Shown: one piece after another, positions 48,548 through 64,000 of the stretch
Numbering within the stretch: position 1 is the first letter of the stretch
Layout of the letters: each line of letters starts with the position of its first letter
Assembly: GCA_021791445.1 (NCBI GenBank)
Contig: JAJYWO010000002.1
Location: 21,757 to 85,756 of the forward strand
DNA length: 64,000 bases
Origin: a bacterium
GTDB lineage: Bacteria; Patescibacteriota; Minisyncoccia; UBA6257; UBA9933
Direction: 5' to 3'
Position numbers and translations under genes: made by a program
The notes under the pieces: generated by a model
Told to the model about the DNA's origin: nothing
The model's input: the letters and a program-made list of their open reading frames with translations, nothing else
The model's database searches: none

Positions 48548-48605
48548 TTTAATAGTGTTATTTACACAGGAAACATAGTCGAATTTCTGAATAAAAAATA
48601 AACAT

Positions 48606-48806
48606 ATGAACGGAACTATTAAAAAATTGATTACGGACAAGGGATTTGGATTCATTTCTCGCGAAGGCGAAGCAAAAGATCTCTTTTTCCATTCCAATGA
48701 ATTAATTGGAGTGACATTTGACGAACTTAAAGAGGGCGATGCCGTCACCTTTGAAGTCGTTGATGGCGAAAAAGGCCCGAGCGCCAAAAACGTGTCGCGC
48801 GCTTAA
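48606..48806 (+). CDS. cspA: Cold-shock protein (CspA family)
   Basis: GFGFI (RNP1) and FFH (RNP2). 66 aa. Confidence 0.9.
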   Translation: MNGTIKKLITDKGFGFISREGEAKDLFFHSNELIGVTFDELKEGDAVTFEVVDGEKGPSAKNVSRA

Positions 48807-48821
48807 GCGTAACATTTTAAA

Positions 48822-48850
48822 AACCGCCCTTTATCGGGGCGGTTTTTTAT
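48822..48850 (+). terminator. cspA terminator
   Basis: CCGCCCTTTATCGGGGCGG followed by TTTTTTATTT. Confidence 0.6.
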
Positions 48851-48949
48851 TTAAAAAATATCGGAATTTCCAGAGCATCGTCATAATTTCTTTGCTTATG
48901 TTTTTTTAACCAAGTCATTGAACAATTCCATAGAATTGTTCAATAAATC

Positions 48950-48980
48950 AAAAACCTCCTGATTATCAGGAGGTTTTTAT
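48950..48980 (-). terminator. Terminator downstream of the intron-containing tRNA
   Basis: AAACCTCCTGATTATCAGGAGGTTT hairpin with T-runs on both strands. Confidence 0.5.
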
Positions 48981-48988
48981 TTGTAAAG

Positions 48989-49273
48989 CTCCGCAGGTAG
49001 GATTCGAACCTACGACCAACCGCTTACACTTATCTTAATATTTCTATTAAGGGTGGACTATATCTTCGCCATTAATAAATAAATTTATTATTAGGCGTTT
49101 TGGTATCTAGTCTCTACGGCGCCTCCGACAAAACGTCGGAGTTCCCACGGTATTACCACTTCCTTACTATGGCGGAAAAGGCTTCACCGTTATCCCAAAA
49201 TGTTCATTACTAAGTTTCCTTAGAAAGCTGCGTTATTTCACAGGCGGCCGCTCTACCACTGAGCTACTGCGGA
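48989..49273 (-). tRNA. tRNA, probably tRNA-Asn(GTT), interrupted by a 213-nt group I intron in the anticodon loop
   Basis: Exons give TCCGCAG/CTGCGGA acceptor, D arm GCTC/GAGC, anticodon stem GCCGC/GCGGT, T arm GTAGG-TTCGAAT-CCTAC, and discriminator G. The Asn identity assumes the splice follows CUGU and lands before UAA. Confidence 0.65.
49027..49239 (-). ncRNA. Group I intron (self-splicing ribozyme) with no ORF
   Basis: R-like element GTAGAGACTAGA and S element AAGATATAGTCC, which form P7. The 5' exon ends in U and the intron ends in G. A possible P1 pairs exon CUGU with intron GCAG. Confidence 0.6.
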
Positions 49274-49311
49274 ATATTCAATTTTTACGAATTACAGTAT
49301 ATAATTTCGGA

Positions 49312-50661
49312 ATGAAAATTGCAATCTTGGGATTCGGCAGCGAAGGAAAAGCGGTTTTGAAATTCCTTCAACAACGCGGACAGACGCGGAACAAACGCGG
49401 AATAACGCGGAATAATAATGAAATTTGGATTTTGGACAAAAATCATAATTTAAGGCCTCCGCAAGGCCTTCAATTTCAAGTTGGCGAAAATTATCTAAAA
49501 AACCTCGCTGATTTTGACATTGTTTTTCGCTCACCCGGAATCCCCTACAACTTGCCAGAAATTCAAAACGCGATTAAAAAAGGCGTAAAATTTTCCGGCG
49601 CCACAGACTTATTTTTTCAAAACGCCAGAAAAATCGGCTGTAAAATAATCGGCATTACCGGCACCAAAGGCAAGGGCACGATTTCAACTTTGCTTTACAA
49701 AATTTTGCGGAATGCCGGCAAAGATGTTTTTTTGGCGGGCAATATCGGCAAGCCCGCGTTGGATATTCTAGCGAAACTCAAAAAAAATTCCATCGTTATT
49801 TTGGAAATGTCCAGTTTTCAATTACAAGACTTACAACATTCTCCGGACATCGCCGTTGTTTTAAATGTTTTTGAAGATCATCTGGATAGCCATAAAAATT
49901 TTAAAGAATACATCAGCGCCAAGGCGCAAATTGCCAAATTCCAAAAACCAAATTCCAAAATATTCTATGACGCGAGCAATAAATGGAGCAAGTGGATTGC
50001 GCAAAAAAGCCCTGCCCAAAAATTCCCAATAAACCCTTTATTCTCTAATTCTGCAGAATTAGAGAATAAAGTAAAATCTGTCGTAAAAATACCGGGCGAA
50101 CATAATTTAAAAAACGCCGTAATAACGGCGACAGTGGCTAAATCCCTCGGCATTCCGGAAAATATCATCTTAAAAACCGTCAAAAACTACCGCGGCATGG
50201 AGCACCGCCTGGAATTGGTTCATTCCAACATTCTCAAGAATGTTGGAATGAATTTTTTTAACGATTCTGCTTCAACGAATCCTTATACAGCTGCGGCCGC
50301 GATTCGCGCTTTTCCGAATCAGCCGAAAATTTTAATCTGCGGAGGAAAAGACAAAAATCTTGACTACGCTCCCCTCGCCCAGGCATTAAAAAATTCTAAA
50401 ACGAAAATGGTAATTTTATTCGGCGAAAATAAAAAAAAAATAAATAAGGCAATCAATAATCAAAAACTAGCAATCAGGAAAGTGGAAAATCTACAACAAG
50501 CCGTTCAACTCGCCTACAAAACCGCTAAGCAATTACAACAATTAAAACAATATAACAATACAAACATCATCTTCTCCCCCGCCGCCGCCAGTTTTGACAT
50601 GTTTAAAGATTATAAAGACCGAGGCGAACAATTCAAAAAAATCGTGAAAAAGTTGAAATAA
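49312..50661 (+). CDS. murD: UDP-N-acetylmuramoylalanine--D-glutamate ligase
   Basis: MKIAILGFG N-terminus and GITGTKGKGT P-loop. In-frame decamer repeat (AACGCGGAAT)n at 49370-49412. Confidence 0.85.
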   Translation: MKIAILGFGSEGKAVLKFLQQRGQTRNKRGITRNNNEIWILDKNHNLRPPQGLQFQVGENYLKNLADFDIVFRSPGIPYNLPEIQNAIKKGVKFSGATDLFFQNARKIGCKIIGITGTKGKGTISTLLYKILRNAGKDVFLAGNIGKPALDILAKLKKNSIVILEMSSFQLQDLQHSPDIAVVLNVFEDHLDSHKNFKEYISAKAQIAKFQKPNSKIFYDASNKWSKWIAQKSPAQKFPINPLFSNSAELENKVKSVVKIPGEHNLKNAVITATVAKSLGIPENIILKTVKNYRGMEHRLELVHSNILKNVGMNFFNDSASTNPYTAAAAIRAFPNQPKILICGGKDKNLDYAPLAQALKNSKTKMVILFGENKKKINKAINNQKLAIRKVENLQQAVQLAYKTAKQLQQLKQYNNTNIIFSPAAASFDMFKDYKDRGEQFKKIVKKLK

Positions 50662-50691: not shown

Positions 50692-50765
50692 GCGGGTGTA
50701 GCTTAGCGGTCTAAAGCACTGCCCTGTCACGGCAGGGATCGCCGGTTCAAATCCGGTCACCCGCG
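50692..50765 (+). tRNA. tRNA-Asp(GTC)
   Basis: Anticodon loop CTGTCAC. Discriminator G. Confidence 0.9.
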
Positions 50766-50771
50766 CAATCA

Positions 50772-50800
50772 TAAAAAGAGGCGAATCGCCTCTTTTTATA
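50772..50800. terminator. Bidirectional terminator (tRNA-Asp on one side, gatA on the other)
   Basis: AAAAGAGGCGAATCGCCTCTTTTT. Confidence 0.6.
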
Positions 50801-52250
50801 TTTTTTCATACCACTGCCCTATTCCCAAAATATCCGCTTCGCGGAAGGGCTTACCGATTAACTGAAAGCCGACAGGTAGTCCGTTTGTTCGCGTTGGAAT
50901 GGAAATCGCCGGTAAACCCGCCAAATTCACGGGAATCGTGAAAATATCCTCCAAATACATCTGCAAGGGGTCGCTGGTTTTTTCGCCGATTTTGAAAGCC
51001 GGCGACGGCGAAACCGGAGTCAAAATCACATCAATATCCTGAAACGCCTTGTCAAAATCATTTTTTATCAATCTCCGCACTTTCTGCGCTTTGGAATAAT
51101 AAGCGTCGTAATAGCCGTGAGACAACACGAAAGTTCCCAAAATAATTCTCCGTTTCACTTCATCACCAAATCCCAACCCCCTTTGTTTCAAATAAATGTC
51201 CGAAAGATTTAAGATTTGAGATTTGAGATTTGAGATTTGACTATAACGGATGCCATCAAATCGCGCCAAATTTGCGCTCACTTCCGCCGGCATAATAATA
51301 TAATAAGAAGACAAGGCGTATTTCGTATGCGGCAGACTAATTTCCTTAAATTCAAAACCTTGCGATTTTAAAATATTTATCGTTTCCTGAACCGCTTTTT
51401 GGGTTTCTTTATCAAGACCCTTAATAAAATATTCTTTTGGCAATCCGATTTTCAATTTTTTGATTTTTTCAAAATCCGGATTCAATAATTCATCGCTATA
51501 TCTGCCAGTCGACGGATTAACGCTTGTGGAATCAAATTCGTCTTTCCCGCTGATTTCTTTGAATAAAATCGCCGCGTCTTCAACGGTTTTCGTTATGGGT
51601 CCGATTTGATCCAAACTGGACGCCATTGCCATCAATCCATAACGCGAAACCGCACCGTAAGTCGGCTTTAATCCGACCACACCGCAAAAATTGGCTGGCT
51701 GGCGGATTGAACCGCCGGTATCCGAACCCAAGGCCGCCACGCACATATTCGCGGCAACAGCGGCCGCCGAACCGCCGGAAGAACCGCCCGGCACTCTTTC
51801 CAAATCGCGGGGATTTCTCGTTTTCTGAAAAGCGGAATTCTCCGTTGACGAACCCATGGCAAATTCATCCATATTGGTCTTTCCTAAAAATATCGCGTCG
51901 GATTTTTTTAATTTTTTAATGACTGTGGCGTCATAACTCGCTTTGTAATTTTCCAAAATTTTTGAAGCCGAAGTCGTTATTTCCCCGTTTATTAAAATAT
52001 TGTCTTTAATCGCCAGAGGAACGGCGCCAAGAACGCCTATTTTGCCGCTACTGTTTAATTCGGCGTCAACAATATTCGCTTTCGCCAAAGCCGCGTCTTC
52101 GCTTGTTCGCAAATACGCGCCGATTTCTTTATCCCGCGATTTTATCAAATCAAAAACCGCTTTCGTAATTTCAAGAGCGGAAAATTTTCTATCAACCAAC
52201 CCCTGATGAAATTTTTTAATGGTTAAATTTTTTAAATCCATTTTATTCAA
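50796..52250 (-). CDS. gatA: Glutamyl-tRNA(Gln) amidotransferase subunit A
   Basis: Amidase signature GGSSGGSAAAVA and GGSIRQPA. In-frame (GATTTGA)4 repeat at 51209-51241. Confidence 0.9.
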   Translation of the reverse strand: MNKMDLKNLTIKKFHQGLVDRKFSALEITKAVFDLIKSRDKEIGAYLRTSEDAALAKANIVDAELNSSGKIGVLGAVPLAIKDNILINGEITTSASKILENYKASYDATVIKKLKKSDAIFLGKTNMDEFAMGSSTENSAFQKTRNPRDLERVPGGSSGGSAAAVAANMCVAALGSDTGGSIRQPANFCGVVGLKPTYGAVSRYGLMAMASSLDQIGPITKTVEDAAILFKEISGKDEFDSTSVNPSTGRYSDELLNPDFEKIKKLKIGLPKEYFIKGLDKETQKAVQETINILKSQGFEFKEISLPHTKYALSSYYIIMPAEVSANLARFDGIRYSQISNLKSQILNLSDIYLKQRGLGFGDEVKRRIILGTFVLSHGYYDAYYSKAQKVRRLIKNDFDKAFQDIDVILTPVSPSPAFKIGEKTSDPLQMYLEDIFTIPVNLAGLPAISIPTRTNGLPVGFQLIGKPFREADILGIGQWYEKI

Positions 52251-52551
52251 AAACGCCGGGAACCTTCAAAAAATCCCTTTCTTTTTCCGGAAAAGCGTTG
52301 ATTAAATCAATCGCCGGAGTTTCGCATTTTATTTCTTTGTCCTCACAGAAAACATTTGTCAATTCCGCGGCGCCGGCCATCGGCTCAACGCCGGAAACGT
52401 CAACTTCTTTCAATTCCTCAAAATGACCGAAAATAGCGGCTAAGTCGCCCAATAATTTTTCTTCTTTGCTTGAATCAATTTCAATTCTCGCCAATTCCGC
52501 CAATTTTTCCAAAGTTTGCTTATTGATTTTTTCGCTCATAAATTTTTTCAA
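52243..52551 (-). CDS. gatC: Glutamyl-tRNA(Gln) amidotransferase subunit C
   Basis: Size (102 aa) and position immediately upstream of gatA. Confidence 0.75.
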   Translation of the reverse strand: MKKFMSEKINKQTLEKLAELARIEIDSSKEEKLLGDLAAIFGHFEELKEVDVSGVEPMAGAAELTNVFCEDKEIKCETPAIDLINAFPEKERDFLKVPGVFE

Positions 52552-60932: not shown

Positions 60933-60979
60933 TTTCAAAACTTATCCAACTTATTGAATCTTAAATTTTTGAAGAAAAC

Positions 60980-63958
<2,979 letters not shown>

Positions 63959-64000
63959 CTTCTCGAATTTAAGATTCAAGAAGTTGGACAATTTATATTT

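Follow-up and report, generated by a model that had tools for sequence, protein, structure and literature searches.

A tRNA-Asn(GUU) gene predicted to be split between U35 and U36 by an ORF-less group I intron: a further copy of a class described in Patescibacteria

The classical group I introns of bacterial tRNAs, which are classed IC3, interrupt tRNA-Leu(UAA) of cyanobacteria and plastids (between positions 34 and 35), fMet (33/34), and Arg(CCU) and Azoarcus Ile(CAU) (36/37). A survey of 95 complete Patescibacteria genomes (Nakagawa, Amikura, Omae, Suzuki 2026, mSystems 11:e01536-25, PMC13011429; bioRxiv preprint 10.1101/2025.07.03.662931) reported group I introns in 15 tRNA-Asn(GUU) and 3 tRNA-Asp(GUC) genes. 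The authors identified position 35/36 as the characteristic insertion site, with 35/36 insertions enriched in Patescibacteria and the tRNA-Asn 35/36 introns predominating among the phylum's tRNA introns. They found most of these introns to lack endonuclease genes, and made an assignment to subgroup IA, with no tRNA intron of the phylum placed in IC. They also demonstrated self-splicing in vitro for the tRNA-Asn intron of GCA_016700035.1 and the tRNA-Asp intron of GCA_001029755.1, sequencing the junctions and using a terminal G-to-C mutant as control (PMC13011429).

Here we describe a split tRNA gene on the minus strand of a 64-kb stretch of DNA, referred to below as the window. The gene spans 285 nt (49273..48989) and consists of an exon of 34 nt, an intron of 213 nt, and an exon of 38 nt; we consider it highly probable that it is a tRNA-Asn(GUU) gene of a Patescibacteria genome, interrupted at U35/U36 by a group I intron without an open reading frame. 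The 5′ exon (49273..49240; UCCGCAG-UA-GCUC-AGUGGUA-GAGC-G-GCCGC-CUGU) contributes the acceptor 5′ strand UCCGCAG, the D arm, the anticodon-stem 5′ strand GCCGC, and the loop residues CUGU, ending in CCUGU at U35. The 3′ exon (49026..48989; UAA-GCGGU-UGGUC-GUAGG-UUCGAAU-CCUAC-CUGCGGA-G) begins with U36, A37, and A38 and continues with the anticodon-stem 3′ strand GCGGU, the variable loop, the T arm, the acceptor 3′ strand CUGCGGA, and the discriminator G. The two halves are complementary over seven acceptor pairs and five anticodon-stem pairs, which places the insertion between anticodon positions 35 and 36. CCA is not encoded, the discriminator G being followed by CUU. Among the intron-less tRNA-Asn homologues from metagenomes (L122-L201), the 12 commonest sequences all end in GGAGCCA, unlike the gene in the window, and this suggests that they come from other lineages. 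The intron itself occupies 49239..49027 (minus strand, GAAAUAACGCAG...GAUAAGUG) and contains no homing-endonuclease ORF; an intron-encoded protein was rejected as a candidate, the only ORFs overlapping the intron being of 22 and 37 aa.

Judged from its sequence, the insert belongs to the group I introns. When Rfam was run locally on 901 nt (48700..49600), RF00028 (Intron_gpI) matched over the full model (1-253) and scored 59.9 bits (gathering score 50; E-value 1.6e-14). The intron went unreported when the whole window was scanned with Rfam, whether at the gathering or at the E-value threshold, and since the local bit score exceeds the curated cut-off, we attribute these misses to artefacts of the size-dependent speed filters in Infernal. 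The core motifs GTAGAGACTAGA (49117..49106) and AAGATATAGTCC (49066..49055) pair as P7. As a paired core motif, AGACTA...ATATAGTC is present a single time in the 64-kb window, where 0.01 occurrences are expected, and the core-motif search found no second copy of the tRNA-Asn intron family there. A minimum-energy fold alone recovers P2, P4, P5, P6, P7, P8, and P9 (z = -2.7).

Homologues were collected by scanning a species-representative genome collection with the pattern TAGAGC-N6-CTGT...AGACTA...GATATAGTC, which returned at least 119 stretches, nearly all of which, among the matches listed, lie in Patescibacteria MAGs. Choosing the 3′ splice site by running ARAGORN on every downstream G proved too permissive, with several amino-acid calls per locus, and was substituted by a strict splice rule requiring a 7-nt loop, a 5-bp anticodon stem, and a 7-bp acceptor stem. 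This rule yielded at least 41 tRNA-Asn genes (exon end CUGU, 3′ exon start UAA) and at least 46 tRNA-Asp genes (CUGU and CAC), at least 87 together, and left 32 of the 120 matches listed unassigned. A number of matches lie in MAGs that bear the labels Gammaproteobacteria, Bdellovibrionales, Bacteroidetes, Clostridia, Ignavibacteriota, Planctomycetales, or Omnitrophota (loci L027, L029, L039, L053-L055, L070, L072, L084, L086, L089, L092, L104, L109); the contigs may belong to Patescibacteria and have been wrongly binned or labelled, or they may represent true occurrences beyond the phylum.

A MAFFT alignment of 39 Asn-type precursors separates two intron lineages, and the intron in the window falls in the larger one, which we call A2 (31 sequences, namely the window and 30 homologues from other genomes). 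The second lineage, A1, comprises 8 of the 39 tRNA-Asn introns (L023, L032, L033, L040, L043, L066, L078, L115) and is characterized by GGTGAATTGCNGGAAACC...GCAGCCAAGC...GAAGGTTCAGAGACTA; several of its members carry small hairpins inserted directly after P7, and its P4-P6 presumably resembles the Azoarcus-type IC3 arrangement. From its sequence, the intron of GCA_016700035.1 that was spliced in vitro (PMC13011429) looks like a member of A1.

A structural model drawn by hand from the sequence in the window (anticodon stem, P1-P6, P6a, the P7 pseudoknot, P8, P9.0, and P9) was projected onto the structure-blind MAFFT alignment of A2. Across the alignment, 96.4% of cells are paired, and 29 of the 52 modelled pairs show compensatory change, distributed over P2, P3, P4, P5, P6a, P8, P9, and P9.0. 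None of 500 shuffles was as good, and sliding the 3′ partners by one to three columns reduced the paired fraction to 35-42%; these contrasts are to be read with the reservations that the model was drawn from one of the aligned sequences, which inflates the contrast with the slid registers, and that the sequences are related, so that shuffle counts are not probabilities. A further bias comes from the search pattern, which imposed CTGT, AGACTA, and GATATAGTC, and thus P7 and four of the P1 pairs give no covariation evidence. Despite this bias, on the aligned sequences, independent compensatory changes are carried by P2, P3, P8, P9, and the fifth P1 pair.

All of the following helices are given on the minus strand. 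P1 (49243..49228) is formed by the exon residues CUGU (49243..49240) and the first intron residue G1 (49239), which pair with CGCAG (49232..49228) across the loop AAAUAA, so that exon CUGU is held on intron GCAG (49231..49228). At the 5′ splice site stands the U35.G wobble (49240 with 49231), which is U.G in 31/31 sequences. The four exon pairs are likewise invariant in 31/31, though CTGT was fixed by the search pattern, and the fifth, intron-internal pair covaries (CG 13, GC 13, AU 3, UG 2). P2 (49223..49210) is a CUAAG-GAAA-CUUAG hairpin with a GNRA loop and compensatory changes in five of five pairs. The 5′ strand of P3, UUUUGG (49200..49195), pairs with CCAAAA (49103..49098), which creates the P3/P7 pseudoknot; P3 is 100% paired, with compensatory changes in four of six pairs. 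P4 (ACGGU/ACCGU) encloses P5 and its loop (49190..49147) and is 100% paired, with an AU/UA swap in 11/31 sequences, and the outer pair of P5 covaries between GC and CG. P6 (GG/CC) and P6a (CUCCGAC/GUCGGAG) occupy 49146..49118 in the cmscan alignment, with P6 invariant and three covarying pairs in P6a.

The 5′ strand of P7, a G, a bulged A, and GACUA (49114..49108), pairs with 49060..49055 as GACUA/UAGUC plus a G-C pair across the bulge. It is 100% paired and invariant in 31/31 sequences, but since the search pattern required AGACTA, P7 is uninformative on covariation; by analogy with other group I introns it is presumed to be the guanosine-binding helix. P8 (49097..49067) is a CGCC...GGCG hairpin with an A/U-rich inner stem, recovered by the minimum-energy fold, 100% paired, and with compensatory changes in three of its four outer pairs. 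No extra helices were seen between the 3′ strand of P3 and P8 in the lineage of this intron. J8/7 and the 3′ strand of P7 (AAGAUA-UAGUCC, 49066..49055) are placed by both the Rfam alignment and the family alignment. P9.0 (49054..49028), in which AC (49054..49053) pairs with GU (49029..49028), encloses P9 (UUAAUA-GAAA-UAUUAA, 49050..49035); its second pair is CG in 26, UA in 4, and UG in 1 of the sequences, and P9 covaries in six of six pairs. The terminal G (omega G, 49027), directly preceded by the covarying P9.0, marks the 3′ splice site and is G in 31/31. Loops L2 and L9 are GAAA in the window, and GNRA in 30/31 and 31/31 members of the family, respectively.

This picture bears out most of an earlier note made on the same DNA. 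The note had proposed a 213-nt group I intron in the anticodon loop of a probable tRNA-Asn(GUU) at 48989-49273, which proved right to the base, on the minus strand, and a complete 72-nt cloverleaf from the two exons, which the 34- and 38-nt exons do form. The R-like and S core elements that it paired as P7, its P1 between exon CUGU and intron GCAG, and the U and G that it placed at the ends of the 5′ exon and the intron are all present, and its statement that there is no ORF inside agrees with the two short overlapping frames described above. The covariance-model search with RF00028 that it proposed as a check gave the match reported above for the 901-nt scan.

An intron may retain a recognizable core and yet have decayed, and if this one no longer spliced, the gene would be a tRNA pseudogene and another locus would supply tRNA-Asn. 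We regard this as very unlikely. It would be in keeping with the lack of a strict 11-nt tetraloop-receptor motif in both P5 and P8 of the window sequence, and with the fact that only a 64-kb window of the genome is in view. The strict motif, however, is found in P8 of only 5/31 and in P5 of only 15/31 members of the family, so that many relatives likewise do without it. The remaining evidence points away from decay: all 52 modelled pairs are standard in the window sequence, every family-invariant column is intact, the exons yield a perfect cloverleaf, and the 285 nt are identical in two further public assemblies, three in all.

The identity of the host tRNA also requires consideration. Joined in silico, the exons (72 nt) fold as tRNA-Asn(GUU) in ARAGORN, with the loop CUGUUAA, and in 122/122 uninterrupted genes from a metagenome scan that share the acceptor 5′ strand, D arm, and T-arm core, the loop is CTGTTAA; the best intron-less match to the predicted spliced product is identical at 68 of 72 positions. 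When annotated tRNA-Asn genes of Synechococcus phages are aligned, their match covers query positions 248-285, the 3′ exon from the exact predicted junction. In a BLAST comparison with E. coli genomes, the best match of the spliced tRNA was tRNA-Arg (83.6%), a comparison that is uninformative on identity across phyla, and similarity alone is no proof of Asn. In the fetched intron-bearing genome loci we found no intron-less tRNA-Asn or tRNA-Thr(UGU), the tRNAs seen being Thr(GGU), Thr(CGU), and Asp, and the 64-kb window contains no second, uninterrupted tRNA-Asn. The earlier note had remarked that the unspliced loop would read as a His-like GUG anticodon; this is true of the letters and carries no functional weight.

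ARAGORN in its default mode does not detect the split tRNA-Asn gene in the window, and in intron mode (-i) it reports the precursor as tRNA-Thr(tgt) i(33,213). Under that reading, the host would be tRNA-Thr(UGU), with an intron of the same length shifted by 2 nt (splicing after U33, terminal G at 49029). This alternative also has U at position -1, G at the end of the intron, and a 7-nt loop (CUUGUAA). It would, however, leave P1 without a U.G wobble at the splice site, U33 being paired with A in the conserved P1, and its alternative omega position (49029) is A in 4/31 sequences and covaries within P9.0, whereas G 49027 is invariant. None of the 122 intron-less homologues reads TGT, and all read GTT. 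The pair U1-A72 together with a discriminator G, as found in this tRNA, is what we take to be the bacterial tRNA-Asn pattern. Moreover, the same 2-nt mis-call by ARAGORN and tFind, of tRNA-Asn(GUU) as Thr(UGU) at 33/34, has been documented and was disproved by the sequenced spliced product of a related gene (PMC13011429). We thus reject tRNA-Thr(UGU), which we hold to be exceedingly improbable, on the grounds of the P1 wobble position, the invariant G 49027, and the absence of TGT homologues, and consider the Asn host settled, because the P1 wobble, the invariant terminal G, the 122/122 CTGTTAA loops, and the phage tRNA-Asn alignment agree.

A chance resemblance or an assembly chimera, in which unrelated tRNA fragments flank no intron at all, would fit the absence of the intron from the whole-window Rfam scans but is refuted, to a negligible residual probability, by the local E-value of 1.6e-14, the strong covariation seen across homologues from at least 30 other genomes, the identical locus in independent ENA and NCBI assemblies, and the match of the exon halves over 7 acceptor and 5 anticodon-stem pairs.

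For the split tRNA-Asn(GUU) gene, then, we propose the following course of expression. A promoter-like site, TTGCAA - 17 nt - TATACT (49324..49296, minus strand), stops 22 nt short of the tRNA 5′ end and may be the promoter of the gene; the consensus scan that found it returned 3 sites against 1.9 expected in shuffles, which is weak evidence. On the other side, 9 nt past the tRNA 3′ end, an intrinsic-terminator-like hairpin (48979..48949, minus strand), a palindrome between A- and T-runs, may serve as its terminator. A precursor of about 300 nt would run from the promoter-like site, about 22 nt upstream, to this hairpin. Its intron would fold into the P1-P9 core with the P3/P7 pseudoknot, as the covariation indicates, and exon CUGU would pair with the internal guide GCAG, such that U35.G sets the 5′ splice site, in line with sequence and conservation. 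Following the established group I mechanism and the in vitro splicing of related introns (PMC13011429), free guanosine bound in P7 would attack after U35; on the same basis, the terminal G 49027, placed by P9.0, would then replace the guanosine, and the 3′ OH of U35 would attack after 49027. Ligation would give, as predicted in silico, a 72-nt tRNA-Asn with the loop CUGUUAA, which would then be matured by RNase P and by a CCA-adding enzyme, the latter being expected because CCA is not encoded.

The palindromic hairpin at 48949..48979 is common to the tRNA-Asn gene and to a convergent gene, csp, which encodes a cold-shock domain (CSD) protein (48606..48806, plus strand), and could terminate transcription both ways, including that of csp. 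Rfam also gives a weak cspA match at 48585..48850, with 32.5 bits where the gathering score is 78; it lies across the coding sequence of csp.

Could the intron be more than a tolerated passenger, and act as an RNA-level gate on what is possibly the sole tRNA-Asn gene? We consider this very unlikely; if it were true, guanosine- and Mg2+-dependent splicing would make the amount of mature tRNA-Asn depend on the nucleotide or energy state of the cell. Along with tRNA-Asp, the locus contains gatC/gatA, which presumably encode the amidotransferase of the tRNA-dependent route to Asn-tRNA. In the literature, a regulatory role of tRNA introns has been raised just as speculation (PMC13011429).

The assignment of the host genome to Patescibacteria, which the earlier note had guessed at in speaking of a Patescibacteria-like setting, is supported by two comparisons of sequence. 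MurD, encoded nearby, clusters at 90% identity with a protein that carries the name 'Patescibacteria group bacterium', and the closest introns among the matches listed, at about 76% identity, come from Paceibacterota, Moranbacteria, and Parcubacteria MAGs. Exactly the same 285 nt are present in an ENA contig (ERZ27237183:k141_1227082) and in an NCBI MAG (GCA_027339105.1), and both matching loci are at least 99.96% identical to the window over 5-6 kb.

Two other RNA loci of the window may be mentioned here. An uninterrupted tRNA-Asp(GUC) (50692..50766) lies directly beside gatA/gatC (span 50692..52551). Elsewhere, 10 of 10 fetched loci with a gatA homologue near an intron-bearing tRNA are of the Asp type (L003, L012, L046, L065, L069, L077, L079, L082, L096, L116). 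The linkage of tRNA-Asp to gatA thus looks conserved, with a homologous intron present or absent there depending on the lineage. In the 23S rRNA gene (60969..63962, minus strand), about 65 nt are inserted behind model position 312 and a shorter stretch near 282 (about 63540..63625); because the gene measures 2994 nt against the 2925-nt model, it contains no large rRNA intron.

These results have some bearing on annotation. Standard tools either miss the split tRNA-Asn, as ARAGORN does in its default mode and Rfam on the whole window, or mislabel it as tRNA-Thr, as ARAGORN does in intron mode, and routine annotation probably overlooks such introns because of size-dependent Rfam filters. Because such genes are missed or mislabelled, estimates of genome completeness and of the tRNA complement in Patescibacteria will be biased unless introns are searched for locally. 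The count of at least 87 cases in species-representative genomes suggests that the class is far commoner than the 18 tRNA-Asn/Asp cases from complete genomes.

Compared with the described systems, the intron in the window adds one previously unlisted member to a class that has been published and is backed by experiment (PMC13011429), and is in that sense already known. The earlier note had expected an Asn host in Patescibacteria to be unusual, an expectation that does not hold given the published class and the at least 41 further tRNA-Asn cases in our genome scan; the window copy and the added cases extend the class in number, not in kind, and are ordinary for the phylum. The intron shares with the published Asn class its host tRNA, anticodon, 35/36 site, phylum, U at position -1, and terminal G, as well as the Thr(UGU) 33/34 mis-call by ARAGORN and, as in most members, the lack of a homing-endonuclease gene. 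It differs in its source, a draft MAG outside the 95 complete genomes surveyed. The intron of GCA_030583765.1 in their Table S3 (Paceibacteria, 205 nt) is of the same lineage and collinear with ours through all core elements, the identity being 69% when counted over the alignment and 75% relative to the shorter sequence, whereas the two introns spliced in vitro are only 57-58% identical to the intron in the window and have another P4-P6 sequence. The tRNA-Asp(GUC) 35/36 introns belong to the same family, with exon end CUGU on GCAG and the core GGGATAWCGGTGAA...CCGTAGAGACTAGATACC, and that of GCA_023898525.1 is 59-74% identical to the intron in the window; they differ in their host, tRNA-Asp, and in a 3′ exon that begins with CAC.

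With the classical bacterial tRNA introns, the intron in the window has in common its compactness (about 200-250 nt), the absence of an ORF, its location in the anticodon loop, GNRA loops on P2 and P9, and the R/S core sequences AGACUA and AAGAUAUAGUC, and the mechanism of splicing is presumed, by analogy, to be the same. It differs from them in host tRNA and insertion site. Its P4-P6 (GGGAUAACGGUGAA.../...UAAUACCGUGGGAAC) is also unlike the Azoarcus-type GCCAAGC, as we take the Azoarcus sequence to read. The label IC3, suggested by its size and its GAAA L2 and L9 loops, was not adopted here, as the window sequence is without strict receptor motifs and none of the tRNA introns of Patescibacteria is assigned to IC (PMC13011429).
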